Counted from the stretch's first letter, positions 6,238-63,284 are shown. The stretch: 64,000 nt of DNA from an uncultured delta proteobacterium (GCA_963841435.1 CAWJCS010000006.1:256001-320000); one strand, 5' to 3'. Notes: generated by a model from the letters alone, not told the origin. Program-made: numbers and translations.

Positions 6238-8158
6238 ATGACGCCAACCGCCGAACGTGTCCTCGTGGTGGATGACGAGCCGCAGGTTTTGGTCGCGCTC
6301 TCCGATCTGCTCTCGGACGAGTTCGCAATCCTCACGGCGGATTCTGGTGAGCAAGCGCTCACCCTGGCCGAGGAGGAGCCCGACCTGGCGGTCATCGTTA
6401 CCGATCAGCGGCTACCCGGCCTGTCGGGCGACGAGTTGCTCGCTCTGCTCGAGGATCGATCGGCCGCCACGCGCATCCTTGTCACGGGGTATGCCGACCT
6501 CACCGCCGTGATCAGGGCAGTGAACGTAGGTCGCCTTTTCGCCTACGTGTCGAAGCCCTGGAGCGCGGAGGACCTGAGGCTGAAAGTGCGTCGTGCGGCC
6601 GAGCGGTATCGCCTGACGAACGAGCTCGCCCGCGAGCGACAACTGCTCCACGATCTCATGGACAACGTGCCGGACGGCATTTGTTTGAAAGACCGCGAGC
6701 TTCGGGTTTTAGGTACGAATCGAGCGTTTTCCATGCTGCTAGGCGTCAGCGCTCCGGACACGCTCGTGGGCAGGCGGCTATCGGAGGTTCTCGGCGAATC
6801 ACCGGACGCCGGTCACAGCGAAGCCGAGGAACGACGAATCCTCTCGATGGGGTCAGCGGTGCAGGACCTCGTCACCGAGCGCCAACTCGCGCATGGCAAG
6901 CGATGGCTGTCGGAGACCAAGGCCCCGATCCGGAACGCCTCGGGGGAGGTCATCGGCCTCGTTGGCATCACGCGCGACGTGACCGAGCGCGTGGAGACAC
7001 AGGAGGCGCTTTCGCGGGTCGAAGAGCAGCTGCGCCAATCGCAGAAGATGGAAGCGATCGGTCGAACTTGCCGGAGGCGTGGCGCACGATTTCAATAACC
7101 TTTTGTCGGTGATCCTGGGCTACGGCGAGTACGTTCTCGAGCGACATCCCGAGCCGGACGAGGCACGCGACAACGTCGTGCAAATCATCGCTGCCGCGGA
7201 TCGAGCGGCAGCCCTCACTCGCCAGCTACTTGCCTTCAGTCGTCAGCGACCGATAGAGCCCGTGGTCATCGACCTCAATGCCGTCATTCTGGACACCGAA
7301 AGGATGCTGCACCGCCTAATCGGCGCGGAGGTCGTGATCCAAACCGATCTGCAGCCGGACCTCGCCTCGATCCGCGCTGATCCCACTCAGCTCGAGCAAA
7401 TCCTCTTGAACCTGGTCGTCAACGCGCGGGATGCAATGCCGGGCGGCGGCAGCATTCTCATCAGCACGCGGCTTAGCTCGAAGGATGCGCCCGAGCGCAG
7501 CGCAGGACCGAACCCCGCGGCTTTGGTGGAGCTCTGCGTCGCGGACACCGGCAGCGGGATGGACGATGACACCAAGCAGCACCTATTCGAACCATTCTTC
7601 ACGACGAAGCCGGTGGGCAAGGGGACGGGACTGGGCCTTGCCACCGTCTACGGGATCATCCAGCAGTCCGGAGCTCGGATCCGCGTGGAAAGCGACATCG
7701 GCGTCGGGACGCGCTTCCGCATGTGGTTTCCAACGGCAGGCGAGGAGACGCGCTCGTCGCCGCCGCGGCCCGAGCACAAGGGACGACCCCGCGGAGCGGG
7801 AACCGTGCTGCTCGTCGAAGACGAGGATGCCGTGCGGCGCGTGGCGGCAAGGACCCTCCGCGAGCAGGGTTATACGGTCCTCGAGGCGCAAGGGGTGGCG
7901 GAAGCGCGTCAGCTTTGCGAGCAGCACCGCGCGACCATCGACCTGCTGCTGACCAACGTCGTCATGCCGGAGCTCAGTGGCCCGAAGCTCGCAGAGGAGC
8001 TAACCGTCATTCTCCCCGGGTTGCGTGTTCTTTTCATGTCGGGCTACTCGGGCAACGCCTTCCAACACTCGGTCATGCCGGCCGCCTCGTCCTTCGTCGA
8101 GAAGCCCTTCACGCCCGCCGTTCTCGCCAGGAAGGTCGCCGAATTGCTGGACAGCTGA
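6238..8158 (+). CDS. Hybrid histidine kinase REC-PAS-HisKA-HATPase-REC, split by a +1 frameshift at 7065-7066
   Basis: [21 protein letters not shown] is restored by removing one A from GTCGAAC; N, G1, F and G2 boxes present; the C-terminal REC reads LLTNVVMP at the phosphoacceptor. Confidence 0.85.
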
Positions 8159-8260
8159 CTGATTGCAGGGGTCGGTCGCTGCCACGGCTTGGTCCCGCGC
8201 GCTGGGGCAACGCCGCTTCCCGGGTTACCGCTCCACGACGGTGCGCGGTCGCGTCCCTGC

Positions 8261-10852
8261 TCATCCGGAGGGCAGCGTGCTCGGCGTGTAGCGGCGCCCG
8301 AGCAGCCCGGGGATCTCCTGCGGGGCGACGGGCTTCGAGATCAGATAGCCCTGGATCTCGTCGCACTTGAGGAGCCGGAGGAATCGAGCCTGCTCGCGGG
8401 TTTCAACGCCTTCGGCGATGACGTCGAGCTCGAGCGCATGGGCGAGCGAGATGATGGTGGTCACGATCGAGGTGCTCTGCGGATTTTCAACCATCTGCAG
8501 CACGAACGAGCGGTCGATCTTGAGCGCGTCGATCGGGAGGCTCGCAAGGTACGAGAGCGAAGAATACCCCGTCCCGAAATCGTCGATCGCAACCCGCAGC
8601 CCGAGGTCCCTGGCGGTGGCGAGCTTCGCGACACTGCCGGCGAGGTCGTCCACGAACACGCTCTCGGTGATCTCGATATCGATGCCCGCGGCGTCGTGCG
8701 GGTAGAGCGAAAGCACGTGCTCCACGCGTGCGACGAAATCGGGCGCCCCCAGCTGAAGTCCCGAGACGTTCACTGCGATGCGGGGGACCCTCACGCCGGC
8801 GGTTTGCCAATCGGCATACTGCCGCGCAGCGCGCTCGAGCACCCATCGACCGACCTCGCGGATGAGACCGGTCTCCTCGAGTACGGGGATGAACTGCCCC
8901 GGGGACACCATGGCTCCGCCCTCCTCTGCCCAGCGGATGAGCGCTTCGAGGCCGACGATCTGGCCTGATTTCAGATCGACCTTGGGTTGATAGTGGAGAT
9001 CGAACTCCTCCCGCGCGACGGCCCGGCGCAGCCTGGTCTCGAGCGAGAGCTGCTCGGCGACGCGGGCGTTCATCGTCGGTGCGTAAAAACCGTAGGGTTG
9101 TAGGCTCGCCTTGGCGCTCTTCAAGGCGGCCTCCGCGCTTGCGAGGAGGACCTCGGCTCGGTCGCCGTCCGTCGGGAACATGGCTACTCCCGCACGCGTC
9201 GCAACGCTCACCTCGTGCCCGGCGATCAAGAATGCTTCTTTGAATACGCCCGGCAGGTCGTTGTCGACGACCGAACCCACGGACGTTTCACTCTCGAGTG
9301 CGGGCAAGACCAGTGCAAAGACGTTCCCGTCGAAGCGGGCCACGGTGCCAAGGCCGTCGAGCGCCTCGAGCCTGCGCGCGACCTGGATCAGCAGCTCGTC
9401 GCCGCCGCCGCGCCCGAGCGCGTCGTTGAGCTGACGGAATCGGCCGAGGTCCACCAGGACGAGCGCGAGCTGCTGCGCGCTTCGCTCGTGCAAGATCAAC
9501 TGCTGTGAGATCCTATCGAGCAGGAGCCTGCGATTCGGCAAGCCCGTGAGCGCGTCGTGGAAGGACAGAAACTCGACCTGCTGGCGCTTGTCGATGTGAT
9601 CGAGCGCCAGCGAGACGCTGCTCGCCGTTTCGCCAACGAGCTTGAGCACCTCGTCCTCGAAGAAGAAGGCGTCGCGCGCGAAAAGGAGCAGGCTCCGCCC
9701 GCCGCTCGCCCCACGGTGCAGCGGAAAGGCCACCATCGCGCCTAAACCCTGCTCCAGCATCGTTGAACGCAACGCAAAGTCACCCACCGCCTGTAGGTCG
9801 TCCATGACCATGCGGAGCTCGGTGGAATTTTCCAGTCCAGGAACGCTGGCCCAGACGGCCCCGATCACATCCAGCACCGCCTGGTGCGAGACGCCATCGG
9901 CAGCTGCGCGCGACAGGACGTGCGTTCCGGCCACGCCCACCTCCATCACGGCCGCTGCGGCGAGCTCGCCGACGCCGACCGCGACCCTACAAACCTCGCT
10001 GACGAGCTCCGACGGTTCGGAGAGACGGACGATGGCAGCGTTCACGCTGCTCATCAATGCTCGCATCTTGCCGATCCTGACGGCCCGTTCTTCTTCGGCG
10101 CGGCGTTGCGTCACATCGCGCGTGACGCCGACCAGGCCGATGACCGTACCGCCGACCCCGCGAATGGCCGCCTTGCTCTCCGACAGCCAGCGCTCTGCGC
10201 CCCTGCAGCGCAGCTTGCGTGTGACGTCGGAGATCGAGGTCTCCTGCTCGATGAGCGCGCGCTCGGCTTTCTCGGTGGCCTCCGCGTCGGCACCATCGTC
10301 GACGAGGTCTCCCAGCGACCGTCCGAGGACGTCCGACACCCCGGAGCCGAATAGCGTGCCGAACGCGCGGTTGGCGCGCCGGAACCGCAGCTCGAGATCC
10401 TTGAAGTAGATACCGTCGGGAATGTTATCCATGAGGTCATGGAGTAGCTGCCGCTCCTCGGAGAGCTCCTTTGCCAGGTGATAGTGTTCGGCCGCGCGGC
10501 TCACCTTGAGCCTGAGGTCCTCGCGTTCCCACGGCTTCGAGACGTATGCGAAGAGGCGCCCGTCGTTCACCGCACGAACGATTGCGGCGAGATCGGCGTA
10601 ACCGGTTAGCAGGATGCGGGTCGCCGAAGAACGATCGGCAGCCCGCGCAATGAGCTCGTCGCCGCTCATGCGAGGCATCCGCTGGTCGGTCATCACGACG
10701 GCGAGCTCGGGCTCCTGCTCGACGATGTGCAGCGCGCGTTCCGCCGAGCCTGCGCTGACCACCCGGAACTGCTCCGAAAGTAGGTCCTCGAGCGCCACGA
10801 GCACCTGTGGCTCGTCGTCCACGACCAGAACGAGATCCTTGGCAGTGCCCAT
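8261..10852 (-). CDS. REC-PAS-GAF-GGDEF(degenerate)-EAL protein
   Basis: HDALTGLPNR; signature reads RFDGNVF; intact LEALIRW, DDFGTGYSS, AEGVET, QGY. Confidence 0.9.
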   Translation of the reverse strand: MGTAKDLVLVVDDEPQVLVALEDLLSEQFRVVSAGSAERALHIVEQEPELAVVMTDQRMPRMSGDELIARAADRSSATRILLTGYADLAAIVRAVNDGRLFAYVSKPWEREDLRLKVSRAAEHYHLAKELSEERQLLHDLMDNIPDGIYFKDLELRFRRANRAFGTLFGSGVSDVLGRSLGDLVDDGADAEATEKAERALIEQETSISDVTRKLRCRGAERWLSESKAAIRGVGGTVIGLVGVTRDVTQRRAEEERAVRIGKMRALMSSVNAAIVRLSEPSELVSEVCRVAVGVGELAAAAVMEVGVAGTHVLSRAAADGVSHQAVLDVIGAVWASVPGLENSTELRMVMDDLQAVGDFALRSTMLEQGLGAMVAFPLHRGASGGRSLLLFARDAFFFEDEVLKLVGETASSVSLALDHIDKRQQVEFLSFHDALTGLPNRRLLLDRISQQLILHERSAQQLALVLVDLGRFRQLNDALGRGGGDELLIQVARRLEALDGLGTVARFDGNVFALVLPALESETSVGSVVDNDLPGVFKEAFLIAGHEVSVATRAGVAMFPTDGDRAEVLLASAEAALKSAKASLQPYGFYAPTMNARVAEQLSLETRLRRAVAREEFDLHYQPKVDLKSGQIVGLEALIRWAEEGGAMVSPGQFIPVLEETGLIREVGRWVLERAARQYADWQTAGVRVPRIAVNVSGLQLGAPDFVARVEHVLSLYPHDAAGIDIEITESVFVDDLAGSVAKLATARDLGLRVAIDDFGTGYSSLSYLASLPIDALKIDRSFVLQMVENPQSTSIVTTIISLAHALELDVIAEGVETREQARFLRLLKCDEIQGYLISKPVAPQEIPGLLGRRYTPSTLPSG

Positions 10853-11046
10853 GGTAACCACCCTTCAATCCGAGCAATCCGAGCCCAAATCCTAGCACGA
10901 CCATCGCGTATAGGTGACGGGGCGCCCCCTCGTTGACACGCTGAAGAAGAGACACCTATCATCCCACGGTTATCCGGAGAAAAAACGCAGGCTCAGCGGG
11001 CGGCGCGCAGGTTTGGGGCTGCTCGAAGGCGTGGGCGAGGGCGCTC

Positions 11047-12222
11047 GTGGTTGTCGTCTGCTTGCTTGGTAGCTCGCAAGCGGCGGCGCAGGACAGTGGT
11101 GCCGAAGTGCCCTGGGTCGAAGTGCACGGCTTCGTCAGCCAGGGGTTCATCCTGAGCAGTCGCAACAATTACCTCGCGAGGTCGCGCCGCGGCAGCTTCG
11201 AGTTCGCCGAGGTCGGGCTCAACGTGACGAAGAACGTCACGGACGATTTCCGCATCGGCATGCAACTCTTCACGCGGGACCTGGGGCCCGTCGGCAACTA
11301 CAAACCACAGTTCGATTGGTTTTATCTCGACTATCGTTTCCGCGACTGGTTCGGCATCCGGGCCGGTCGGACCAAGCTGCCGTTCGGCCTGTACAACGAG
11401 GATAGCGATACCGACTCCGCGCGCGTGCCGATCCTACTTCCTCAGTCGCTCTACCCGACCGGCAATCGCGACGTGCTGCTCGCCCAGACCGGCGGTGAGG
11501 TTTACGGCTATGTGCCCCTCGGAGCCGTCGGTGCCTTCGACTACCGCCTGTACGGCGGGACCATCTTCATCGACGACACCCTCCTCGCCTCACCTGCGGC
11601 GACCGTGACGCGCGTCGATATTCCGTACATCTTCGGCGGCCGGGGCATGTGGGTCACGCCGCTCGACGGGCTGCGTGTCGGCGGCAGCGTGCAGGCGCTC
11701 CGGATCGAGATCGACTACCAGCTGAGCCCCGCCACCGTAGCCGCGCTCCAGATGGCCGGGCAGCTGCCGACGCCCTTCGGAGGGACGTTCGCGTATCGGT
11801 TGCCCTACCTGCTCGGGGTGGGATCGCTCGAATACGCGGCCCACGATCTTCTCCTGGCCGCTGAATACTCGCGCTGGCACACCTCGTATTCCACGGACCC
11901 CAAGGTCGTACCCGACGGCCACGTCACGGCAACCCGCTGGTACGTGATGACGTCCTACCACGTGGCGCCCTGGTTCACCCCCGGCGCGTACTACTCCGCG
12001 TACGACAACGGGAGCTACGGCCCAAGGCTCCGCAACACGTATCAGCACGATCTCGCTGTGACCGCACGTTACGACTTGACCGACAACTGGCTCGTCAAGC
12101 TCGAAGGGCACTACATGCGCGGCACGCTCGGGCTTTCGAGCGAGCTGAACTCGGGCGAGAAGACGGCGCTTCTGGCGCGTGAGTGGGGCGTTTTTTTGAT
12201 CAAGACCACGGCCTATTTTTGA
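11047..12222 (+). CDS. Outer-membrane beta-barrel/porin-like protein
   Basis: Signal-peptide-like start, HGFVSQG, QFDWFYLDY, RAGRTKLPFGLYNE, C-terminal aromatic AYF; start codon uncertain. Confidence 0.75.
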   Translation: MVVVCLLGSSQAAAQDSGAEVPWVEVHGFVSQGFILSSRNNYLARSRRGSFEFAEVGLNVTKNVTDDFRIGMQLFTRDLGPVGNYKPQFDWFYLDYRFRDWFGIRAGRTKLPFGLYNEDSDTDSARVPILLPQSLYPTGNRDVLLAQTGGEVYGYVPLGAVGAFDYRLYGGTIFIDDTLLASPAATVTRVDIPYIFGGRGMWVTPLDGLRVGGSVQALRIEIDYQLSPATVAALQMAGQLPTPFGGTFAYRLPYLLGVGSLEYAAHDLLLAAEYSRWHTSYSTDPKVVPDGHVTATRWYVMTSYHVAPWFTPGAYYSAYDNGSYGPRLRNTYQHDLAVTARYDLTDNWLVKLEGHYMRGTLGLSSELNSGEKTALLAREWGVFLIKTTAYF

Positions 12223-12232
12223 GGATGCCAGC

Positions 12233-12730
12233 ATGCGCTCGGGAGCCGGTGACCGTCATCCTCTCGTCTTCGTTCGAAGCGGCGGGGTATCGCGAAGGAT
12301 CGTGCTCGCTGGACCTTGGCTGTGCCTGCTGTCGTGGACGGAGCCAGTGGCAGCCGACCGTGCGACCACGACGTTCGTCGTCGTTGCGAATCGGGGCGTG
12401 TCCGTGGCCGTCGTGGAACGCACGTTCCTGGCGGACGCATTCTTGAAGAACCGCACGCGCTGGCCGAGCGACGACCCGATTCGGCCGGTCGATCAGAGCT
12501 ACGACTCGCCCGTGCGAAAGGCATTCAGCGAGGCCGTCCTCAAGCGCTCGGTGGCCGCCGTCAAGAACTACTGGCAACAGCGCATCTTCTCCGGCCGCGG
12601 CGTGCCGCCGCCTGCGCTCGATGGGGATGCCGCCGTGATCGACTACGTGGCGTCGCACGGGGGTTCCGTCGGTTACGTGTCGGCCGGTGCGGCGCTCGGC
12701 GAGACGAGGGTGCTCACGGTGAAGGGGTAG
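12233..12730 (+). CDS. Small periplasmic-binding-protein-like protein (phosphate ABC SBP-like family)
   Basis: FVVVAN...FL...W...F...VL...YWQQRIFSGRGVPP...V..YV....G.VGYV family motif. Confidence 0.75.
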   Translation: MRSGAGDRHPLVFVRSGGVSRRIVLAGPWLCLLSWTEPVAADRATTTFVVVANRGVSVAVVERTFLADAFLKNRTRWPSDDPIRPVDQSYDSPVRKAFSEAVLKRSVAAVKNYWQQRIFSGRGVPPPALDGDAAVIDYVASHGGSVGYVSAGAALGETRVLTVKG

Positions 12731-12737
12731 CGGCGTC

Positions 12738-15700: not shown

Positions 15701-16166
15701 AGTTCGGCTATTCGTCCTCCACTTGAAGGATTCGAACGGAGGTGCGATCAGCGTGGCAGGCGACGTGCTTCCCGAGATCTCCCTCAAAGGCACCCACATT
15801 CTGCTGGCGGATGACGACATGCGCACCGTCTACGCCGTTTCGGCTTTGTTGCGCGGCAAGGGTGCCGAAGTCCTCGTCGCCGAGAACGGGCGCGAGGCGC
15901 TGGAGGCGCTGGCCGCTCACCCGACTCTAGGTGTCATCCTGATGGACATCATGATGCCCGAGATGGATGGCTACGAGGCGCTTCGACGGCTGCGTGCGGA
16001 CGCTCGTTTCGCAAAGATCCCGGCCATTGCGCTCACGGCGAAGGCCATGAAGGGAGAGAGAGCGCGCTGCCTCGAAGCGGGCGCGACCGAGTACCTCACC
16101 AAGCCCGTTGACCCGGCTCGCCTGCTGACTCTACTCAAGGCCTGTCTGGAGAGCACGTCCGCGTGA
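12738..16166 (+). CDS. Membrane hybrid histidine kinase (HAMP-GAF-coiled coil-HisKA-HATPase-3xREC)
   Basis: Two TMs, DELGQLA HAMP, FLSNMSHELRTPLN H-box, GGTGLGL, three receiver domains. Confidence 0.92.
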   Translation: MQLSLRAKLMSIVGATTVAFVALLAVETWLGVRQAEDLDNVERRMVPKLELGPRVEASFARLRQNMQDAVAAQDAVALDDTIRQRGELIGTLSAGDALPAGDAARLRHAIVSYHEAAYAASRRLLRGESGEAMVNALAAMQVKQRATEELIRRTTRLDRGELAGGFAAIRAGVASRTRYLLLIGALSLALVLALASWVGRGMLRTLGDMSRGVSRFATGDFKESIPVTTEDELGQLAKEANQMARSLQRSAWLKGSLAALSDELRGELEPADAAARVITFLCRQLEAVAGLLYLEKAGVLNPAATYARSTERGLPAPSFAHGEGLPGEAALRNEITVVADPPGAYLTVRSGVGGAPPRALVFVPVKRSEKTLAVIELALFAPLRNDARELLESAREMIGIAIDVARSRAELRALLERSQKQTELLGAQEEELVANNRELAEQQEELRRANEELELQRRALSEQNAELEEARETLIAKANELSRVSSYKSQFLSNMSHELRTPLNSMLLLSHLLSENEGKNLTDKQIEFAKSIHGAGTDLLGLINQVLDLAKIEAGHESVNVTGVVLEDVLTSLRRLFDPLAQNKDLELTLEAETGAPAHIETDRQRLEGILVNLLGNAIKFTGAGSVRLRVFSPRPPLPEGLKEGTTLAFSVSDTGIGIDEAMRERVFSPFEQGDTRAVRSYGGTGLGLAIARESARLLGGELVLEGSNGIGSTFTCYLPERYEGVTRVEPAPGEPGRRPASDDRASLRPADPYLLVVEDDPLFAEQLVELIHTRRFRAVVAATGGHALELAQRHPPRGVLLDVKLPDIDGWTVMERLRDDARTRSVPVHFISGVDTPGRALSLGAVGYLRKPASKDDLVAAIRTLTRPPALETARVLVVEDDPSAGNSLVELLRSASMDATHVTSAAATIDALTNERFGCVVLDLGLPDMDGLGLLEILRERGDLVTPPVVVHTGRALTREETRRIERYADAVVLKDGSSAERLLDEVRLFVLHLKDSNGGAISVAGDVLPEISLKGTHILLADDDMRTVYAVSALLRGKGAEVLVAENGREALEALAAHPTLGVILMDIMMPEMDGYEALRRLRADARFAKIPAIALTAKAMKGERARCLEAGATEYLTKPVDPARLLTLLKACLESTSA

Positions 16167-16989
16167 GCGTCGAGGACGAGCCCGAACGGATCGAAGTCGA
16201 GTTGCTCCTCGAGGCAATCAAGCGCCGGTACGGTTACGATCTGGCTCAATACGTGCCCGGCTCGATGGTGCGCAGGGTGCGCGCCGCCCTCGCTCGGTCT
16301 GGGCTCGAGCACCTGGGCAACGTCCAGCATCGGCTGCTGCACGACCCCGAGTGGTTTTCCTCGTTGCTCGACCAGCTCACCGTCCAGGTCAGCGAGATGT
16401 TTCGGGATCCGGGCTTTTATCGGTTTTTTCGCGAGCGGGTCGTGCCGCTGCTTCGCACCTACCCGGAGCTTCGATTCTGGCACGCGGGGTGCTCGTCCGG
16501 TGAGGAGGTGTACGCGAGCGCGATCCTGCTCGAGGAAGCGGGCCTTTACGATCGAACGCAGATCTACGCCACGGACCTCAGTGCCCGAGCCGTCGCGTTG
16601 GCGAAAGAGGGTGTCTACGCTGCAAACGTCGCGACGAGCTTCGGGAACAATTACGAGCGCTCGGGCGGCTCCGCGCGCTTTTCCGACTACTATTCGGTCG
16701 CGTATGGCCGCATCGCCATGCGTGACGCATTGAAGCGGAACATCGTCTTCTTCCAGCACAATCTCACGCAGGATCACGCCATCGGAGAAATGAACGTCAT
16801 TTTCTGCCGCAATGTGCTCTTCTATTTCGAGAAAGGACCGCGTCGCCGGGTGCTCGAAGTGCTCGCCAACAGCCTCTGCCGCGGCGGCTTCCTGTGCCTC
16901 GGGGCGACAGAGTCGGCGCCCGACCTCGCGGCGGGGACGCTTGTGGAGCTCGCGCCGGGCGAGCGCATCTTCCGTCGCGTCGGGGTCGC

Positions 16990-16993
<4 letters not shown>
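16163..16993 (+). CDS. cheR: CheR-type protein-glutamate O-methyltransferase
   Basis: VSEMFRDP, WHAGCSSGEEVY, IYATD, IFCRNVL motifs; GTGA overlap with the kinase. Confidence 0.9.
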
Positions 16994-18234
<1,241 letters not shown>

Positions 18235-47302: not shown

Positions 47303-47795
47303 ATGGACCAGGCCAAAGCTACCTCTTTCGCCCCGCTCCGCGGCTCCCCTGTCCCTGTCTCGACGCCCTCCCCCCCACCGCATGCCGTGGCGGTCGCCGC
47401 GGAAGGGCGGCTCGGCGCGACGCTCGCCCGCCTGCGAGAGCTGCGCGGGGCGCTCCGGAGCGGGCGCGCCGTCGTGGACCCGGCGCCGCTGCTCTCCGAG
47501 CTCCGCGTGGACCTCGAGCTCCACTTTGCGCTCGAGGAGGCAAGCTCCTACTTCGGCGTCGTGCTGCGAGAGCGGCAGTCGCTGTCGCACGCCATCGCCG
47601 AGCTCAGACGTGAGCACGAGCTGATGCTCGGCATGGTCGAGGCCGCTCGCGCCGTTGCCACCGATTCGCTGCGGGCACCCGAGCTCGTGACGTTCCGTCG
47701 AACGGCTCCTCGACGAATTCGAGGTGCACGAGCACGAAGAAGCGAGCCTCTTGCAGGAGTTTTTCCTGCGTGACGACGGTACGGGCGCCGACTAG
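47303..47795 (+). CDS. Hemerythrin-like (HHE) protein with +1 frameshift near 47692-47702
   Basis: HFALEE, LRREH; removing one base restores RLLDEFEVHEHEEASLLQEFFLRDDGTGAD*. Confidence 0.7.
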
Positions 47796-49041: not shown

Positions 49042-49984
49042 TCAGGGCAACACGGCGCGGAGCGACGCGCGGCCCGAGAAGCCGAGCACGGGCACGGCGA
49101 ACGCCTCGAACGTCGGGACGAAAGTAGAACGTGGGGTGGGAGAGCGCGACGACCGCTTCTCCATCGAGCGTGAACGAGAGAAATCGGGTCGGCCGCAGCT
49201 CGAGGCGAGCGAGTGGCCCGAGGCTCAGCCAGGGCCGGGTGACGGTCTGCTGGTCGAGCGTCGCGGAGCCGACGCCGCGCAGCGTGCCGACGCCGAGAGC
49301 GGCGCAGGGCGTGAACGACACGAGCCCGGTGCTCGGTAGGCTGAGCGGGCAGAACCAGCCGCGCGCCCCCGTGTACGTGAAGTCGGCGCGCCCCGCGCCC
49401 GTGTCCACGGTGTCGGAGCGGGTCCGTTGCGCGGCGATGCCGAACGAGATGCCCCGCGCGCCCGTCGCGCTCTGGTGCTCGGCGTCGAGCTCGAAAAACG
49501 CGCTCAGCGCGAGCTCCGGTGCGATGCCGCTGTCGAGCGCCGCGCCGGCACCGCCGCCGAAGCGGAAGTGTGCGCGCCGAGCCGGTCGGCGTGGCTCCGG
49601 TGCGGGACGCTGGGCGTGGTCGGGCTCGCTGCGAGAGAGCGCCTCGGGGTCGACGAGCACCGCGGCGATGAGGGCGAGCGCCGAGACGACCTCCTCGCAC
49701 GTCGCGCCCGCGACGGCGCGCGGCGTTTCGCGGCCGTCAATCTCGCGCAGCGTGAGCCGCCCGAGCACGTCCGTCACCCGATCGCTCAGCGTGACGTCGA
49801 AGGTTGCCGCCGTTTCGTCGGCGGCGGCCAGGCGCGCCCGCGGCGTGCGCGCCGAGAGCTCGGCGACGAACGCCGCGCGGCTCGAGCAGCCGGCGGGCGC
49901 CTCGTAAGTGACGTGAAATGGCTGCGGCGCAGCGGCCGCGTGCCCGGCGAGCGCCATGCCGAACGCGAGCCAGAGCGCTCGCAT
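49042..49984 (-). CDS. Exported protein with beta-barrel-like C-terminus, +1 frameshift at 49109-49110
   Basis: Signal peptide, YEAPAGC, C.EV..ALAL; removing one base restores ...PDVEAFAVPVLGFSGRASLRAVLP*. Confidence 0.6.
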
Positions 49985-52055: not shown

Positions 52056-52187
52056 GGTCGTCTCCTGGCGTTGAGCGGGATGTGGGGTCTTTACCTACAC
52101 CGTCTCACCTGCCGGGGTCAAGCGACCGGCCCGTTCCTTCGGCCAACAGGCCGCATCGGGGTGGGCGAGCGCGGCTGGGGAGACTGG

Positions 52188-53033
52188 CTAGTAATAGCCG
52201 CCGGCGTGAATGAGCAGACCGAACGAGAGCAGGTGCGCATCGCGCCGGTCGATGAGCTCCTTGCCGTCGTACAACGAGTAGCTCCCGCCGAGCCCGAGGT
52301 CGAGGAACGGGCCGCCGAAGAGCACGATGTGCTCGAGCGGTGAGAGCACGCCGAGGATCTCGAACGAGGCGTCGACGAACGTCGCCCGAGTCTCGAACTC
52401 GCCGAGCGTATCGCCGAGACGTGGGTCGATGACTTCGCGTGTGGCGCGGCTCGTGGAGATCGTGAGCCCCGCGCGTGGCCAGATGCCGAAGGTGCGATCG
52501 AAGGGATAGGCGAACCCGCCACGCACGCCACCGAGCAGCGTGAAGCCGTCGGGCGCTGCGGTCGGCGGTGCCTCGGGACGCTGGCCGGCCGCGCCGTCGA
52601 GCGACACGCCGCGCGTGGCGATCATCCCGGTGCCGCCGACCGTGAAGCCCTGGTAGACGACGTAGTCGAGCGCGAAGCGCGGCAGAGCCGAGGGACTGTT
52701 GCTGTCCATACCGAGCAGCCCGAAAGAGGTGACCTTGTAGTCGTGCGTGATCTTCGCGCCCGTCTCGGCGTCCGTGTAGGTGAGCTTCTGGCGGTCGAGG
52801 AACAGGCCGGACGCGCGTTCGATGGCGAAGACGAACTGGCCGGTCTCGCCGACGTTGTCGAGGGGCTTCGGCGGCGCGACCATGGGCGTCGGGAACGCTG
52901 CCGTTCCGTACGCGCCGGTCGGTGCGGTGTACGTGCCGGCAGCCGTGCCTTGGGTCTGGAAGCCCTGAGCGAGCGCTGGGGCAGCCCCGAGCGACGCGCA
53001 GGCGAGCGTGAGGAGCGCCACGGGGCGTTGCAT
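52188..53033 (-). CDS. Outer-membrane beta-barrel-like protein
   Basis: Signal peptide, PRFALDY, IWPRAG, GPFLDLGL, C-terminal GGYY. Confidence 0.7.
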   Translation of the reverse strand: MQRPVALLTLACASLGAAPALAQGFQTQGTAAGTYTAPTGAYGTAAFPTPMVAPPKPLDNVGETGQFVFAIERASGLFLDRQKLTYTDAETGAKITHDYKVTSFGLLGMDSNSPSALPRFALDYVVYQGFTVGGTGMIATRGVSLDGAAGQRPEAPPTAAPDGFTLLGGVRGGFAYPFDRTFGIWPRAGLTISTSRATREVIDPRLGDTLGEFETRATFVDASFEILGVLSPLEHIVLFGGPFLDLGLGGSYSLYDGKELIDRRDAHLLSFGLLIHAGGYY

Positions 53034-53046
53034 GCGGCGGACTCTA

Positions 53047-54172
53047 TCAGAAGAGCGAGCGCAGGGCCGAAAGGCGTGCGTCGAGCTCCGCTGGGTTCGG
53101 CGCACGCACCGTCACGTGGCCGACCTTGCGTCCCGGGCGTGGCGCTTTTCCGTAGTCGTGGAGGTGCGCGTCGGGCACGGCCAGCACGGCGGCGGCATCG
53201 GGAAGGGAGCCGATGCAGTTCAGCATCGCGCTCTCTCCGACGAGCGCTGGCGAGCCGAGCGGCAGCCCGAGCACGGCGCGCAGGTGCTGCTCGAACTGGC
53301 TCGTGACCGCCCCCTCGATGGTGAAGTGTCCGGAGTTGTGGACGCGCGGAGCGATCTCGTTGGCGAGGAGCTCGCCGCCGGCCGAAAAGAGCTCGATCGT
53401 GAGAACACCCACGTAGTCGAAGCGCCGGAACAAGGCGTCGAGGTAGCCCTCGGCGGCCCGCTGCATCGCGGGTGGGAACGTCCGGGGCCGGCGCGCGAGT
53501 GAACCGGAGAATGCCCGCATCGTGGTGGTTTTCGACCAGCGGGTAGAACGCCGTGGCGCCGTCGGCACGGCGTGCACCGACGAGGCTGAGCTCGCGTTCG
53601 AACCGCACGAAGCCCTCGAGCAGCAGGGGCACGCCGCCGAGTGCCGCGAACGCGCCAGCGATGTCGCCCGGCGCTCGGAGCACGCGCTGGCCCTTGCCGT
53701 CGTACCCGAGGCGTCGCGTCTTGAGCACGGCGGGCAAGCCCGCCACCGTGACGGCGCGCTCGAGGTCGGCCTGTGAGGAAACGTCGAAGAAGGGGGGGGT
53801 GGGGATGCCGAGCTCGGCGAAGCACGTCTTCTCGCGCAGGCGATCCTGGGCGACCTCGAGCGCCACCACGGGGGGGTGGAGCACGGTGCGCGCAGCGATG
53901 GCGCGCGCGGCGTCGACGGGAACGTTCTCGAACTCGTACGTCACAACGTCGCAGCCGGCGAGTCTGTCGAGCGCCTCCGGCGCCCCGTAGTCGAGAGCGA
54001 GATGCTCGCCGAGCTCGGCCGCGGGCGCGTCGGGGCCGGGGTCGACGAACAGGAAGCGGGCGCCGAGCGGCAGGCCGGCGAGCGCCAGCATGCGCCCGAG
54101 CTGGCCTGCGCCGAGCACGCCGACGCGTGGCCCTCGCGGGTCAGCGTCGGAGCTTCGCGGTGCGGAGGACAC
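53047..54172 (-). CDS. purK: N5-CAIR synthetase, +1 frameshift at 53477-53478
   Basis: [60 protein letters not shown]. Confidence 0.93.
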
Positions 54173-54647
54173 TTTGCCTCTGCTCGGTCCGGTAGCGCTC
54201 GAGGGCGCGCCCGAGCTGGGGCCGGCCGCGCGCGACGATCGCCGCCGCGAGCAGTGCCGCGTTGATGGCGCCCGCACGACCGATGGCGAGCGTGCCCACC
54301 GGAACTCCGGCCGGCATCTGCACGATGGAGAGCAACGAGTCGAGCCCCTTGAGGGTGCTCGATTCGACGGGCACGCCGAGCACGGGTACCCACGTTTTCG
54401 ATGCGACCATGCCGGGCAAGTGCGCCGCGCCGCCCGCGCCCGCGATGATCGCTTCGAGGCCGCGCTCGGCCGCGCTTGCCGCGTACTCGAACATCAGATC
54501 GGGCGTGCGATGTGCCGAAACGACGCTCGTCTCGTGGGGGACGGCGAGCGCATCGAGCATCTCCGAAGCGTGGCGCAGCGTTTCCCAGTCGCTCTTCGAG
54601 CCCATGATCACGCCCACGAGGGGCTTTTCGCTCGTCTTTTTTGCCAC
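54141..54647 (-). CDS. purE: N5-CAIR mutase
   Basis: [37 protein letters not shown]. Confidence 0.97.
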
Positions 54648-54742
54648 GCGGAAAGGCACGCACTTTAGTGACTTATCCCACGGGCGCAAGCGTCTGAAGC
54701 GCTTCGCCAGTCTTTGGCATGGGGGCTACACTCGGCCGCCCG

Positions 54743-57700: not shown

Positions 57701-58036
57701 CGTGCCATCGAGCATCTCGAGCTGCTCGTCGAGCGCTACCTCGAGGGTCAGGCGCGTCCGCTGCCGTTCTTGCCGCCCGAGAGCGACGCGTACGTCGGAA
57801 AAGTTCGCGCGGGCAAGGCGAACGAAGGGATCGGGGCTGCCCAGCAGAAATACGAAGGGCAGGGCGGCACGCTGCAGCGCGACCCGCACCCCCAGCGGGC
57901 GTTCAATCATCGGTTGCCGCCCTTCAATCCGCTCTTCGACCGTGGCGAGCGCTCGGCCGAACAGACCCGCTTCCACGCGCTCGCGCTCGAGGTCCTCGGG
58001 CCGTGTCACGACGCCAGGGCGGAGGCAGGGTCGTGA
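54743..58036 (+). CDS. recC: Exodeoxyribonuclease V gamma subunit
   Basis: FDQYLTYRP.W, HSCHGP.REVEVL, PMRSIPFRVV.LLGMNDG.FPR, HPLQAFS. Confidence 0.95.
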   Translation: MGTFFVHESHRVELLAGELGTLFEAPHGAPFDPEAIVVPGRGMGVWLSMQLARKLGVWATPFSYPRALVERVVRATLGDDALGPEPLSEDLVEWCVRETLPSLLGDPDFEKLARYLEGDEHGERLSELAARIAQVFDQYLTYRPAWIRAWEAGGVGIVPEGERWQPRLWQRVQKRLAARHVAHVEEELLARLSGARAVWGLPPRVSLFGFSTLPPLYLRVFVALSRRVDVHLFRFAPGRAPTGEARAPGGLAGIAGVGPLLGLGATGDELSEVLEATLAAQGVRAERRQTFERRPVASLLEALTARLGGDAAIDPATFPLDGDERASVAVHSCHGPMREVEVLHDQLLALLTRTDDPVAPDDVAVLVPDLAAYAPLVEAVFRREPGDLRFIPFRVADLGTRARSPGLDALLRVLAMVRGRVTAAEVTDLLGLDIVRTRLGLDAPAADRIGAWIVESGIRWGLDDAHLTARGLPAADALTWEFGLRRLLVGYALPSGGVRSFHGVFGYDEVEGKEAALLGILAHFVRSLGRHLRDCERPRSLSDWALALADLAAELFGEDPEGLRERASIELAVADLVRVASAAGFNAALDVRVVARLLERRADARGAESGFLAGGVTFSAMVPMRSIPFRVVVLLGMNDGAFPRSPRPLEFDLMANGAFAREVGDRVPRDDDRQLFLETLFAARERLIVTTSGRSVKDDRVMPPSACLGELVEALAGPAGTDGAKERRSALVTDHPLQAFSPAYFDGTEPRLFSYRSEYETSAQSLSGPAQPDRPFVTELEAFARPRELALDELIRFWKSPPTYLLNRRLGIYLKERRPERRPREPLEPDDLERWHIASALLEALIAEPDPELAVPAVEERLRGRAALAVGGWGGAQLSDLREVCQQIAEKVRSLRGDEVEGREAVAIALAGGTKIAGSVPSVFGGRLIEHGYSTLDTRRELELWIRHLALCAAEGAPRQSSVRVGRDGKKSGTIGVLELVALPRARAIEHLELLVERYLEGQARPLPFLPPESDAYVGKVRAGKANEGIGAAQQKYEGQGGTLQRDPHPQRAFNHRLPPFNPLFDRGERSAEQTRFHALALEVLGPCHDARAEAGS

Positions 58037-61000
58037 TGCCGGTCGCTCCCTCGTCGGCGTTCGATCCGATGACGGTGCCCCTCGAGGGCAAGATCCTGGT
58101 CGAGGCGAGCGCGGGAACTGGCAAGACGCACGCCATCACGAGCCTGTTCGTCCGACTCGTCGCCGAGGCGGAGCGCACGCCCTCCGAGATCTTGGTCGTC
58201 ACCTTCACGGAAGCGGCGACGGCCGAGCTGCGCACCCGAGTGCGCGCGCGGCTCGTCGAGGCGCGCGAGAAGCTCCGGCCCGAGCGCGCGGCCGAGGCCG
58301 AGAAGGACGAGATACTCGGCCGTTTGGTGCGGGAAAAGGGCCTTTCGCCTGCCACGCTTCGCGAGCGCCTCGAGCGAGCCCTCGGGACGCTCGACGAAGC
58401 GTCGATCAGCACGATCCACGGCTTTTGCCGGCGGCTACTCCACGATCACGCACTCGGGACGCGCGCTCGCTACGACGCCGAGCTCGTCGCCGACCTGCGC
58501 GAGCTCGAAGAGGACGTGCTCTACGATTTCTTCCGTCTCAAGTTCGCGGGCGGCTCGCGCCTGCTCGCCGAGGGAATCAAGAAGAACAAGGTCGGTCCCG
58601 GCGTGCTCCGCAAGGTGTTCGACACCTACCGAAAGCAAGCGGGTGCGCGCACGATTCCCGACGCCGACCGGCTCGGGGACGGCGCGACGCGTGCCGCCGT
58701 CGAGCTCGAGCTCGAGTACCTCGACTACTCCGAACGCGAGCTCGCCGCCCGCAAGGAGCGCGCGAGCGTGCTCGGCTTCGACGACTTGCTCGAAGGCGTG
58801 GCGCGCGCCCTCACGGGCCCGGGCGGGGTCGCTCTCGGGCGGGCGCTCTCGGAGCGCTACAAGGTCGCGCTCGTCAACGAATTCCAGGACACCGACCGGA
58901 CCCAGTGCACGATTTTCGAGGCCATCTTCGCGCGCCCCGAGACCCCGCTCTTCCTGATCGGCGATCCCAAGCAGGCCATCTACGGTTTTCGCGGGGCCGA
59001 CGTGTGGAGCTACCTTGCGCTCACGCGCGACGCGCGTCGCTACACGCTCGACACGAGCTACCGCTCCGATCCCGGCGTCGTGAAGGCGGTGAACATGCTG
59101 TTCGGCGGGCCCCGGCCGTTCTTGCTCGAAGCGATCGAGCACCGCGACGTGAGCGCGCGGCCGGGCGCCGTGGATCAGTTCCAGGCCGAGCTCGCCTCGA
59201 ACGGCGCTCAGTTCGAGATCCTGTTCGTCGAGTCCCCGGCGCCGGGCGTCCCGCTTAGAAAGCCCCCCGCGCGCGCCGCAGCGAGCCGTGTGGCGGCGGC
59301 CGAGGTCGCGGCGCTGCTCGGCGGGCGCGCGACGATCGCGGGGCACCGCGTCGTCGAGAGCGACATCGCCGTGATCACGCGCACCAACTTGCAGTGTTTC
59401 GACGTTCAGGAAGCGCTCAGGCAAAAGGGCATCGTCGCCGTCGTGATCGGCGACAAGGACGTGCTCGAGTCCGACGAAGCCGAGGACCTCATCCTCGTCC
59501 TACCGGCGGTGCTCGACCCCACGAGCGGCTCGGCGCTCCGGCGCGCGCTGGCGAGCGCGCTTTTCGGCCAGACCGCCGACGACATCTCCCGGCTCGACGA
59601 CGACGCTGCGCGTTTCGAGCTCTGGGCGGAGCGGCTGCGTCGCTGGCAGTCGCTGTGGACCGAGCGCGGCTTCATGCGGATGTTTCGCGCGCTCCTGGAG
59701 GAGACCGACGCCGCGGGGCGGCTGCTCTCGCGCCCGGGCGGCGAGCGGCGCATCACGAACTTCCTGCACCTTGCCGAGCTTTGCCATCGCGCCGAAAGCG
59801 AGGAGCACCTCGGCCCTCAGGCCCTTTACTCCTGGCTCGTCGAGCAGCGCGAGGAAGGCACGGCCGCCTCCGAGCACGCCGAGATCCGGCTCGAAAGCGA
59901 CCGCGGTGCCGTGCGCGTGCTCACCGCACACAAGGCCAAGGGGCTCGAGTTTCCCGTCGTTGTCTGCCCGTTCGCCTGGGACGGGCGGCTCGCGATGGAC
60001 GACGGACCGCCGAAGCTTTTCCACGACGAGGACGGCGTTCTCGTGCTCGACCTGAACGTCAACAAGAAGGCGCCGGGTCGCGATTTTGGCCGCGTGAAAT
60101 GGGAGGCGCACGCCGAGGAGCGGCGCGTGCTCTACGTGGCGCTCACGCGTGCCAAGCACCGCGTCACGCTCCTGTGGCTCCACGCGGGCAATCTCGGGGT
60201 CAGTGCCGCCGCGACGCTGCTCCATCCTCCGCTTCGCCTCGACCCGGCGGAGATGCCGACGAGGAACTACCTCGACAAGGGCCGGAACATCCGCGGCGAG
60301 CTCGAGGGCCTCGCCGAGCGCTCGGCTGGCGTCATCACGCTCCGCAGCGTGCCCTTCACGCACGATCGTCCGGCGATCGAGCGCCCGCCCGAGGCGCGCC
60401 CGACGGCGCGTGCCCGGCGCCCGGAGCGACCCTCGCTGCCCGCGCTGCGTACGGGAAGCTTCTCGGCGCTCACCCACCGCGAGATCGTCGTCGACGAGGA
60501 CGAAGCGACGCGCGATCACGACCAGGCAGCAGAGCCGGCACCGGTGACGCCCGACGAGTCGCCGGCGCCGCCGCCCGAGCCGACTCCCGATGCCGATCGC
60601 ATCGTGCTCGACGGCTTTCCTCGCGGGCGGCGCGCGGGCGACTTTTTCCATCATCTACTCGAGAAGATCGACTTCTCGAGCGCGACGGGGCCCGAGATCC
60701 TCGAGGTCGCCAGCGACGCGCTGGGGCGCTTCGGTCTCGCCCGCGGCGAGCCCGAAGCAACGCGCGACGCCTACCTGTCGCAGGTCGTGCGGGCGCTCGA
60801 CGAGACACTCCGGACGCCGCTCTCGCCCGCTGGATCCTTCTGCCTCGCCGACATCACGCCCAAGCGGCGCCAGAGCGAGCTCGAGTTTCGCTTGCCGGTC
60901 GCGCACGAACCGGGCGGCGAGGCGCTGACGCGGGAGCGCCTGGCGGCGGCGTTTCGTGCCCACCCGAGCCCGGAGCTACCTGAAAGCTATGCCGAGCGCG

Positions 61001-61380
61001 TGGCACGCCTCGCGTTCCCGTCATTGCGCGGCTTCCTCAAGGGCTACATCGATCTCGTGTTCTGCCACGAGGATCGTTGGTACGTGGTCAACTACAAGAC
61101 GAACCACCTCGGTGACCTCGTTGCCGACTACGACCGCGCCCGTATGACGGCCGCCATGGCCGAGTCCCACTACTTTCTACAATACCACCTCTACACGCTC
61201 GCCGTCAGCCGCATCCTGTCGCGCTTCGTTCCGGGCTTCGACTACGAGCGGGATTTCGGCGGCGCGCTCTATCTCTTCCTGAAGGGGATGCGCCCCGGGG
61301 CGCCCGGCGGCATTTTCTACGAGAAGCCGCCGCTTTCGCGGCTTATTGCGCTGTCGTCGGTGCTCGGAGGCACGCCGTGA
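58036..61380 (+). CDS. recB: Exodeoxyribonuclease V beta subunit (Walker B reads NEFQD, nuclease motif reads NYKT)
   Basis: EASAGTGKT, IGDPKQAIYGFRGAD, HKAKGLEF, LYVALTRA, GYIDLVF. Confidence 0.95.
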   Translation: MPVAPSSAFDPMTVPLEGKILVEASAGTGKTHAITSLFVRLVAEAERTPSEILVVTFTEAATAELRTRVRARLVEAREKLRPERAAEAEKDEILGRLVREKGLSPATLRERLERALGTLDEASISTIHGFCRRLLHDHALGTRARYDAELVADLRELEEDVLYDFFRLKFAGGSRLLAEGIKKNKVGPGVLRKVFDTYRKQAGARTIPDADRLGDGATRAAVELELEYLDYSERELAARKERASVLGFDDLLEGVARALTGPGGVALGRALSERYKVALVNEFQDTDRTQCTIFEAIFARPETPLFLIGDPKQAIYGFRGADVWSYLALTRDARRYTLDTSYRSDPGVVKAVNMLFGGPRPFLLEAIEHRDVSARPGAVDQFQAELASNGAQFEILFVESPAPGVPLRKPPARAAASRVAAAEVAALLGGRATIAGHRVVESDIAVITRTNLQCFDVQEALRQKGIVAVVIGDKDVLESDEAEDLILVLPAVLDPTSGSALRRALASALFGQTADDISRLDDDAARFELWAERLRRWQSLWTERGFMRMFRALLEETDAAGRLLSRPGGERRITNFLHLAELCHRAESEEHLGPQALYSWLVEQREEGTAASEHAEIRLESDRGAVRVLTAHKAKGLEFPVVVCPFAWDGRLAMDDGPPKLFHDEDGVLVLDLNVNKKAPGRDFGRVKWEAHAEERRVLYVALTRAKHRVTLLWLHAGNLGVSAAATLLHPPLRLDPAEMPTRNYLDKGRNIRGELEGLAERSAGVITLRSVPFTHDRPAIERPPEARPTARARRPERPSLPALRTGSFSALTHREIVVDEDEATRDHDQAAEPAPVTPDESPAPPPEPTPDADRIVLDGFPRGRRAGDFFHHLLEKIDFSSATGPEILEVASDALGRFGLARGEPEATRDAYLSQVVRALDETLRTPLSPAGSFCLADITPKRRQSELEFRLPVAHEPGGEALTRERLAAAFRAHPSPELPESYAERVARLAFPSLRGFLKGYIDLVFCHEDRWYVVNYKTNHLGDLVADYDRARMTAAMAESHYFLQYHLYTLAVSRILSRFVPGFDYERDFGGALYLFLKGMRPGAPGGIFYEKPPLSRLIALSSVLGGTP

Positions 61381-63284
61381 TCTCGAGCCTCGGCGAGCTT
61401 TTCAAAAAGGGCGTGCTCACCGCGCTCGATCTCGAGCTCAGCGAAACGCTGATGGCGCTCACGCACGAGACGCGCGACGAGATCGCGCTCGGCGTTGCGT
61501 TCGCATCCCATGCCGTCGGCGACGGACACGCCTGCGTCGCGCTCGACGAGCTCGTGCGGCGTCGCTTCTTCGACGATGCGGGCGAGCCGCGCGGCGACGT
61601 TCGACTCCCCGAGCTGTCCGCTCTTCGCGCGGCGCTCGGCGGGAGCCTGCTCGTCGATCGGGAGCCCTCCGGCTCCGACGCGGGGCCGACACCGACGCCC
61701 GTGGCCGGAGGCGCGCGCCCCCTCGTGCTCGACGGCGACGACCGGCTCTATCTTCGTCGCTATTTCGAATACGAGGTACGGCTCGCCCGAGCGCTCCGCA
61801 AGCTGGCAGCGCCCGTCAACGCGCTCGACGGTGCGGTGCTGAAGGCGAGCCTCGCACGGCTTTTTCCAGGGAGTCTTCCCGCTGACGATCGGCAGCGTCG
61901 CGCGGCGCTGCTCGCGGCGCTGTCGCGGCTCGTCGTCGTGTCCGGGGGTCCCGGCACGGGCAAGACGTACACGGTGGCCAAGATCCTCGTGCTGGTCGTC
62001 GAGGGGATGCTTGCGCTGGGGCGCGAGCCGAAGTCGCTCCTGCTCGCGCCGACCGGCAAGGCCGCGCAGCGCCTCGTCGAAGCGTTGCGCACCAACCTCT
62101 TCTCGCTCGATTGCGACGAGCGAGTCCGCGCTTTCATGCCCTCCGAGGCAAGCACGATCCACCGGGCGCTCGGCTTCTTGCCCGGTACGCCGACGCGGTT
62201 TCGGCACGACGCCGACAACCCGCTGTCCGCTGATCTCGTCGTCGTCAACGAGGCGAGCATGGTGGATCTCGCGCTCATGACCAAGCTCGCCGAGGCGATC
62301 CGCCCCGATGCGCGCCTCGTGCTCCTGGGCGACAAGGATCAGCTCGCCTCGGTCGAGGCCGGCGCGATCCTCGCGGAGATTTACGCGACGGGGAGCGCGG
62401 GCGTCTCGAGCTCGCTCGCAGCGCGGGCACGCGAAATCGCGGGCGAAACGCTGCCGGTGCAGGACGACGCCGCCCGGGGGCCGCTCGCCGATCACCTCGT
62501 GGAGCTCGATCGCGCGCACCGCTTCGAGGATGGCGGCGCCATCGCCGAGCTCGCCCGCGCCGTGAACGCCGGTGACGCCGACGCGGCGCTCGCCTGCTTC
62601 GACCGACACGAAAACCTCGCGCTCGTCGAGGTCGAAGACGCCCGGGCGCTCGAGGCCGCGCTCGCTCCGCGCGTCGAGCAGGGTTTTCGGGCGCTGTCGT
62701 CGGGCGCGCCCCACGAACGACTCGCTCTGCTCGACACGTTTCGCGTGCTCGCCTGCCACCGCGAAGGGGCGTTCGGCGTCCGCGCGCTCAACGACTGGGC
62801 GGCGCGTCTGTTCGGCGCGGCAGGGCAGGGAGCGCTCTACGACGGCCAGCCCGTGATCGTGACGACCAACGACTACCAGGCCGAGCTCTACAACGGCGAC
62901 ATCGGCGTCGTCGCCCCGCGCGACGCCTCGGCGCCCTCGCCGCTGACGGTGCATTTTCGCGCGACGCAGGGTGGCATCCGCAGCCTCTCGCCCGCGCGCC
63001 TTCCCGAGCATCAGCCGGCGTACGCTCTCACGGTCCACCGGGCCCAGGGCTCGGAATTCCAGGAAATCGCGCTCGTTCTGCCGAGCCGTCCGTCGCCGAT
63101 CGTCACCCGCGAGCTCGTCTACACCGCCGTCACGCGGGCCCGGCGCCGCGTCACGATCTTCGGCTCGCACGCCGTCCTCCGTGCCGCGATCGAGAAACGC
63201 ATCACGCGGGCGTCGGGCCTCGCCGCACGCCTCCGGGCTTCGGATCGAGATCTTGTCTTCCAAGCGCGCTCGGGTCGAGGTTAG
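61377..63284 (+). CDS. recD: Exodeoxyribonuclease V alpha subunit (Walker B reads NEASM)
   Basis: SGGPGTGKT, APTGKAA.RL, LGDKDQLASVEAG, NGDIG, TVHRAQGSEF, YTAVTRAR. Confidence 0.95.
   Translation: MISSLGELFKKGVLTALDLELSETLMALTHETRDEIALGVAFASHAVGDGHACVALDELVRRRFFDDAGEPRGDVRLPELSALRAALGGSLLVDREPSGSDAGPTPTPVAGGARPLVLDGDDRLYLRRYFEYEVRLARALRKLAAPVNALDGAVLKASLARLFPGSLPADDRQRRAALLAALSRLVVVSGGPGTGKTYTVAKILVLVVEGMLALGREPKSLLLAPTGKAAQRLVEALRTNLFSLDCDERVRAFMPSEASTIHRALGFLPGTPTRFRHDADNPLSADLVVVNEASMVDLALMTKLAEAIRPDARLVLLGDKDQLASVEAGAILAEIYATGSAGVSSSLAARAREIAGETLPVQDDAARGPLADHLVELDRAHRFEDGGAIAELARAVNAGDADAALACFDRHENLALVEVEDARALEAALAPRVEQGFRALSSGAPHERLALLDTFRVLACHREGAFGVRALNDWAARLFGAAGQGALYDGQPVIVTTNDYQAELYNGDIGVVAPRDASAPSPLTVHFRATQGGIRSLSPARLPEHQPAYALTVHRAQGSEFQEIALVLPSRPSPIVTRELVYTAVTRARRRVTIFGSHAVLRAAIEKRITRASGLAARLRASDRDLVFQARSGRG

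Follow-up and report, generated by a model that had tools for sequence, protein, structure and literature searches.

The 64,000-nucleotide window studied here (GCA_963841435.1 CAWJCS010000006.1:256001-320000, G000:C6:256001-320000 in our genome set) belongs to an uncultured delta proteobacterium and carries, among others, a hybrid histidine kinase, purK, recB and recD, which appear in the public record as split genes or as proteins with Asn at the place of an essential Asp. These split genes and "dead" catalytic residues are almost certainly sequencing or assembly errors at two palindromes, GTCGAC and GACGTC, and not biology. The record contains a consensus artefact that is specific to these two words. 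We consider it highly probable that it consists of long-read consensus errors, with DNA modification as the likely cause, and that the real genes are intact. The errors are most likely nanopore miscalls induced by a modification whose presence we infer, an artefact of a kind that is already known. The preliminary description of this DNA had proposed motif-specific consensus errors caused by modification of both palindromes. Its artefact part is borne out by the recurrence of the changes over the genome, by hits at the synonymous rate and by a strand bias, while the modification keeps the standing of a probable cause.

The genome has 7,783,927 bases in six contigs, with G+C content of 68.7%. 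Judged by its proteins, the organism is most likely an uncultured Polyangiaceae-like myxobacterium: the RecB homologues are named from Polyangiaceae and from Myxococcota metagenome genomes, and the best of them shows 61% protein identity. The DNA identity of recBCD to the closest of 20 sampled relatives is 68%. With nearest relatives at or below this value, a base-by-base comparison with a sister genome is impossible.

In real DNA, words that are reverse complements of each other should have equal counts on the plus strand once gene orientation is balanced. GTCAAC was found 2824 times on the plus strand of the contigs and GTTGAC 1873 times (p 6e-44). GTCAAC was the commoner word on every one of the six contigs and, when the genome was cut into 20 blocks no longer than 400 kb, in 18 of them. 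The counts were 1032/735 in regions of positive GC skew, 907/541 in regions of negative skew and 859/574 in neutral regions. In sense orientation, the two words stood at 1202/316 in plus-strand genes and 811/545 in minus-strand genes (Fisher p 9e-30). AACGTC and GACGTT were also unequal on the plus strand (3234 vs 2818, p 1e-7; by gene strand Fisher p 2e-5), which is weaker than for the first pair. The control pairs CTCAAC/GTTGAG and AACGTG/CACGTT were symmetric (p 0.33 and 0.70; by gene strand Fisher p 0.16 and 0.31). Insertion events had the same kind of imbalance on the contig plus strand, with 32 at GTCGAAC against 11 at GTTCGAC. The bias tracks the arbitrary orientation of the contigs and neither the genes nor replication. 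It means that the bias was made by software, that is, by consensus errors.

Counts over the whole genome agree with conversion of the two palindromes. Against the Markov expectation, GTCGAC was depleted to 0.64 (4316 observed, 6709 expected) and GACGTC to 0.68 (3142 observed, 4631 expected), and both rank among the most depleted palindromes. The G-to-A products, read on either strand, were enriched: GTCAAC 1.39, GTTGAC 1.28, AACGTC 1.30 and GACGTT 1.27 observed/expected, and the similar words CTCAAC, ATCAAC and AACGTG were not enriched by the same expectation. Using 444 kb from the congeners G005 and G007, which match in G+C, as reference, GTCAAC/GTTGAC was the top-enriched hexamer of the genome (4697 copies; 268 expected once scaled, 100 counted in the relatives; z 9.7), and AACGTC/GACGTT was likewise high (z 6.9). 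The densities of the product hexamers were 363 and 241 per Mb, compared with 93-225 in three relatives. The changes form reverse-complement pairs of purine-purine (G/A) and pyrimidine-pyrimidine (C/T) confusion. Only GTCGAC and GACGTC were affected, and the near words CTCGAC, ATCGAC and GACGTG were unaffected. The converted share was even along the genome (0.46-0.60 and 0.60-0.73 across all 20 blocks) and nearly independent of the three flanking bases on each side; no longer motif was found there. From the densities, the excess sites may be estimated at about 2,800-3,150 for GTCGAC and 1,500-2,750 for GACGTC, and the false substitutions in the whole genome at about 4,400-5,900.

The same conversion is visible in the choice of codons. 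In-frame pairs were counted in 4051 strictly chosen ORFs (open reading frames), 2023 on the plus and 2028 on the minus strand. The share Asn/(Asn+Asp) was 0.51-0.52 preceding GTC and 0.30 preceding its synonym GTG. A change that leaves the protein untouched behaved alike: the share GTT/(GTT+GTC) was 0.20 (563/2882) preceding GAC and 0.02 preceding GAG in the same genome, and in three relatives the GTT share preceding GAC was only 1/58, 1/91 and 2/103. Following GAC, the GTT share was 0.28-0.29, and following any other codon it was at most 0.16.

Conserved Asp residues were not spared. A receiver profile was made from four domains of the window and searched against all six-frame ORFs, which gave 135 receiver domains. 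At the phospho-acceptor, five of six Asn stood in GTC-AAC or AAC-GTC context, and AAC made up 5 of 20 GAC/AAC codons flanked by the motif vs 1 of 80 others (Fisher p 0.001). All eight Asn at the first acidic column were in motif context too. Over four conserved Asp columns of the 135 domains, AAC replaced GAC in 15 of 73 motif-flanked codons vs 4 of 260 others (Fisher p 7e-8). At these residues, without which phosphotransfer fails, about 20% of the Asp is lost, the same rate as for the synonymous change to GTT-GAC, and therefore selection has not acted on the changes. Invariant catalytic residues were changed about as often as synonymous positions.

Insertions are the other form of the error. 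We scanned the genome for frameshifts by the phase of third-position G+C together with open-frame conditions, and after merging there were 865 candidate +1 and 831 candidate -1 events; the -1 class is mostly real gene junctions (ATGA, TGATG). The eight insertion forms of the two palindromes were present in 110 of the 865 candidate +1 events and in 9 of the 831 candidate -1 events. The double form GTTCAAC, which combines an extra T with a G-to-A change, was found at 11 of the +1 events vs 1.4 expected, and a +1 phase change occurred at 30 of its 334 sites. Per site, 107 of the 1303 assessable GAACGTC copies had a +1 phase change, vs 228 of 6482 (3.5%) for five pooled control 7-mers, and 80 of the 1343 GTCGAAC copies (6.0%) did, vs 192 of 4840 (4.0%) for four controls. 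Extrapolation of this per-site test suggests about 200 motif-linked false frameshifts in the genome. The earlier suggestion to tally changes genome-wide by context was thus carried out with a clear result: both the substitution products and the +1 events are enriched at forms of GTCGAC and GACGTC.

We propose the following course for these errors. The record would be a long-read assembly, most likely from native DNA sequenced on the Oxford Nanopore platform. GTCGAC and GACGTC are classic type II recognition sites, and M.SalI and M.AatII are adenine methyltransferases. Host methyltransferases would modify both palindromes, and the best candidate for the mark is N6-methyladenine at the A of GAC. 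It might also be of another type, as an m5C enzyme for GTCGAC (M.HgiDII) exists. The modification would lead the basecaller to confuse purines on the modified strand, so that the G of the GAC half-site is recorded as A or receives an extra A beside it, and the mirror change of C to T, or an extra T, comes from the other strand. One read strand would call A and the other would call the mirror error, and a majority vote near 50% would flip some of the sites. If the aligner placed G and A in separate columns, both might be kept as an insertion, which is our conjecture. The real RecB, RecD, purK and kinases would be expected to be intact and to carry Asp.

Indirect signs of a long-read origin are the six contigs for 7.78 Mb, the poly-A/poly-T junk and the lack of homopolymer excess at frameshifts. 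Two such runs were seen: 1573 A directly followed by 445 T at G000:C2:851351-853368, and 191 T followed by 354 A at G000:C6:1694909-1695473, with AT-rich low-complexity flanks. Both resemble long-read junk that was incorporated into the contigs.

Several points weigh against this explanation. Platform, modification and true bases alike are deduced indirectly. The relatives used for comparison are distant (at most 68% DNA identity), and each was sampled for 0.16-0.38 Mb alone. These relatives also have an Asn share of 0.34-0.46 preceding GTC vs 0.22-0.38 preceding GTG, and G005 has GAC-GTT at 0.21, so the excess on the GACGTC side is partly natural. One of the six Asn at the phospho-acceptor lies outside the motif. 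Premature stops from conversion of GT-CGA-C to GT-TGA-C were not clearly enriched, with 4 of 144 in-frame stops, where substrate sites are few. The excess of +1 changes at GTCGAAC is modest, and four of the 7-mers stand at 0.95-1.04 observed/expected, which means that most copies are natural. The strict scan recovered none of the four frameshifts of the window; it is therefore an undercount and a biased sample. Homopolymer runs of 4 to 7 bases or longer were not in excess at the frameshift events, which is unlike old nanopore chemistries and compatible with R10.4.1. Errors at about half of the sites are far above the rates for cultured isolates in the published material at hand. With Pfam and NCBIfam, which stop at the family level, none of the methyltransferases could be tied to GTCGAC or GACGTC.

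The search for methyltransferases, which had been proposed as a check, found at least eight genes or fragments and tied none of them to either hexamer. Among their positions are G000:C5:1636625, C5:1323682, C6:1000658, C3:1365235 and C2:544769. There are three full-length N6_N4 enzymes, two shorter N6_N4 matches, one Dam-family enzyme, two HsdM-type (one of them split) and one split C5 enzyme, the last a neighbour of MTaX1 and of an HhH-GPD glycosylase. For the other ORFs beside the methyltransferases, Pfam and NCBIfam gave no family, and no cognate nuclease was recognised there. The HsdM-type N6_Mtase at L073:4750-5675 (G000:C2:6749-7674) and the C5 methylase at L075:4770-5803 (G000:C2:544769-545802) each gave a Pfam match in two pieces, and so both genes are frameshifted or otherwise interrupted in the record.

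An artefact without any modification is unlikely. It would stem from a basecaller or polisher that handles these hexamers poorly in high-G+C DNA, or from low and uneven metagenome coverage. All genome-internal tests point to an artefact and none to a modification, no methyltransferase is assigned to either motif, and a G-to-A/A-to-G bias is described as remaining in amplified DNA (10.64898/2026.01.14.699587). However, the words hit are two 6-bp type II palindromes that are reported as methylated elsewhere, their close neighbours CTCGAC, ATCGAC and GACGTG are spared, and the same source describes minimal excess outside motif regions (10.64898/2026.01.14.699587). So large a context error would appear in every high-G+C nanopore genome, and this genome does have its eight or more methyltransferase genes or fragments. 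We regard it as quite unlikely that the footprint reflects unusual epigenetics, either a single system that acts on the GAC half-site in both GTC|GAC and GAC|GTC, or a modification beyond plain methylation that current basecallers handle especially badly; either of the two could explain why about half of the sites are miscalled.

The A alleles could also be real, produced by methylation-directed mutation (deamination of methylcytosine) in a lineage with poor repair and many recently inactivated genes, which we consider very improbable. C-to-T, seen as G-to-A on the other strand, is the signature of this process, an m5C methyltransferase for GTCGAC is tabulated (M.HgiDII, PMC6329791), and the C5-methyltransferase of this genome adjoins the glycosylase. 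Double substitutions are excluded as well (GTT-AAC only 40), as expected once the first change destroys the site. We do not count this mutual exclusion of the mirror changes as evidence for an artefact, since a real mutation that destroys the site gives the same pattern. Against deamination, the plus-strand bias, which all six contigs show regardless of GC skew and gene strand, is impossible in real DNA, the +1 insertions at the same motifs are left unexplained, and invariant Asp is changed at the synonymous rate and not purged although the surrounding proteins are well conserved. In GACGTC, moreover, the partner of the changed base is the outer C and not the C of CpG. A record free of errors, with a natural hexamer and codon-pair bias and a chance set of pseudo-receivers and degenerate enzymes, is extremely improbable. 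Relatives too have somewhat more Asn preceding GTC than GTG, pseudo-receiver and degenerate GGDEF domains do exist, and two of the window sites (9325 and 17344) are at variable positions; but GTT-GAC is ten times commoner than in three relatives, GTCAAC is the most extreme of all hexamers, a single recBCD operon has lost three catalytic Asp, with Asp retained in 118-119 of 119 RecB homologues, and the contig-strand asymmetry would have no place. Repair of the message by programmed +1 frameshifting or RNA editing at the motifs can hardly be credited. One motif recurs at several frameshifts, and nothing more speaks for it, whereas both gene orientations are affected (sense G-to-A and C-to-T, extra A and extra T), synonymous positions are changed too, and the pattern tracks the contig strand and not the transcript strand.

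The preliminary description placed 12 sites of the window in contexts derived from GTCGAC or GACGTC, and all 12 contexts were verified in the sequence. Two of its four +1 frameshifts, in the histidine kinase and in purK, were confirmed by Pfam domains divided across two frames. On the plus strand, GTCGAAC at 7061..7067 splits the hybrid histidine kinase (REC-PAS / HisKA-HATPase-REC) into ORFs 6238-7098 and 7079-8158. The upstream frame stops shortly past ...MEAIGR, and the next frame carries a stretch of 12 residues that is the phospho-acceptor H-box of HisKA; position 9 of the Pfam HisKA profile falls on residue 1 of the downstream ORF, so the frame switch lies within the H-box. The minus-strand purK is split by an insertion that reads GAACGTC on the plus strand (53476..53482). 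Pfam placed profile positions 3-117 of its ATP-grasp domain in ORF 52622-54277 and positions 114-179 with PurK_C in ORF 53047-53577, with the frame junction at about 53482-53490.

For the remaining two, a +1 frame change is visible and the details are less firm. In the hemerythrin-like ORF on the plus strand, two adjoining 7-mers (47689..47703), GACGTTC at 47689-47695 and GTCGAAC at 47697-47703, are present and the extra base is not assignable between them. At 49107..49113, GAACGTC (GACGTTC in gene orientation) changes the frame of a minus-strand gene about 24 codons before its end; the Pfam search gave no family for this gene, and the frame change is based on reading frames and third-position G+C judged by eye.

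Eight Asn codons had been described at positions where Asp is expected, and six of them agree with alignments or column composition. RecB has Asn at N292 (GTCAAC, 58873..58878, plus strand), the Asp of helicase motif II (DEFQD), which is Asp in 118 of 119 homologues with one gap, and at N1030 (GTCAAC, 61087..61092, plus strand), the nuclease Asp of the D-Y-K motif, which is Asp in 119 of 119. RecD has N291 at the Walker B Asp (GTCAAC, 62244..62249, plus strand). In the alignment with the E. coli proteins, each of the three Asn is opposite a catalytic Asp. The receiver phospho-acceptor of the histidine kinase is Asn by AACGTC at 7955..7960 on the plus strand, in a column with D 122, N 6, E 4, A 2 and R 1 (n=135). 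GTCAAC at 17062..17067 (plus strand) gives Asn at the first acidic receiver residue (D 73, E 44, N 8), and AACGTC at 16793..16798 (plus strand) gives an Asn of CheR just before the CRNV box, which aligns to an Asp of 5ftw_A.

The other two Asn codons are weak evidence. In a minus-strand gene, GACGTT of the plus strand at 9320..9325 (AACGTC in gene orientation) puts Asn at the Asp position of a GGDEF motif that is already degenerate, and this site had rightly been marked as weaker. No such mark had been given to GTCAAC at 17341..17346 (plus strand), and its receiver column proved variable (D 53, A 29, G 13, R 10).

The precomputed Pfam list of RecB (58003-61380) does not include PF12705 (PD-(D/E)XK nuclease), a family annotated in nearly all of the homologues listed. 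In our own scan PF12705 scored 20.2 bits, under the cut-off of 22. The Asn at the nuclease Asp may be partly responsible for this weak score.

Some other contexts were noticed in the scans. GATTCT was present at 21 candidate +1 frameshifts vs 2.7 expected (e.g. G000:C3 near 1363781 and G000:C5 near 959438), its per-site +1 phase change was 62/540 vs 3.6-4.8% for GATTCG and GATTCC, and AGATCT was depleted in the genome (0.60). GATTCT may be a third error context, namely GATCT with an extra T. GATC itself was tried as a third error motif on account of the hexamers most depleted against G005 and G007, but its density of 5827 per Mb is within the 5514-8950 of the relatives, and it was rejected. 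Within the window, the phase scan flags a possible +1 event at 63221-63263, close to where recD ends, in a stretch that includes AGATCT; it may be a plain gene junction. TAG accounts for 60 of the 144 in-frame stops that are flanked by coding signal on either side, and the contexts AG-TAG-C and GCAAG-TAG recur; they may be a further class of error or genuine pseudogenes.

The broken genes teach no new biology, and it is best to regard RecBCD, purK and the signalling proteins as intact. Artefacts of this kind are already in print, and the value of the present case is a data-quality warning for functional readings of this genome: by our estimate, a public genome carries several thousand wrong bases at two hexamers plus, by extrapolation, a few hundred false frameshifts. 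Asp-to-Asn "dead" enzymes, pseudo-receivers, rare-codon signals and split genes found here should be checked for GTCAAC, GTTGAC, AACGTC, GACGTT and the forms longer by one base. The artefact is provable from the assembly alone by the contig-strand asymmetry, by equal rates at synonymous and invariant positions and by the synonymous codon-context comparison, and these three tests are applicable to other long-read metagenome genomes. If the footprint were of an unusual epigenetic system, the motif set of a methylome would be recoverable from nothing more than a finished public assembly.

In the accessible part of the literature on nanopore methylation at GTCGAC and GACGTC, we found no description of consensus errors at either hexamer. 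One genome is listed with both words as methylated motifs, and the mark is on the A beside the base that is miscalled here (10.64898/2026.06.24.734251). Modification of the SalI type (GTCGAC) and the AatII type (GACGTC) concerns the same two palindromes; none of this genome's enzymes could be matched to either specificity.

Motif-confined consensus errors are attributed to modifications absent from basecaller training (PMC10687267). As in that work of Chiou et al. on Modpolish, the errors here fall in short conserved motifs, and the positions of the errors suffice to recover the motif. That work dealt with GCAGC and GCTGG in Listeria and used close relatives for correction; with the best RecB homologue at 61% protein identity, homology-based correction would be weak in our genome. 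For R10 data, G-to-A is reported as the main motif-linked excess, with an alternative-base fraction above 50% at some sites and with strand imbalance (Liu et al., 10.64898/2026.01.14.699587), a pattern that our case resembles. In the isolates described there the effect is about 1-2 percentage points at read level, whereas here the finished consensus is wrong at about 20-30% of each mirror position.

For native R10.4.1 data, Lohde et al. described a strand-dependent G/A and C/T ambiguity at RACG/CGTY which was removed by PCR (10.1101/2023.09.15.556300). The purine/pyrimidine (R/Y) confusion, the reverse-complement motifs and the strand dependence are alike, RACG/CGTY includes the change of GACGTC to AACGTC/GACGTT, and in both cases a subset of the ambiguous sites becomes assembly error. 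Some hundreds of positions per isolate were reported in that study and verified with Illumina and PCR, compared with thousands here, deduced from the assembly. Unlike the errors described there, those of the present genome also affect a second palindrome, GTCGAC, and include +1 insertions.

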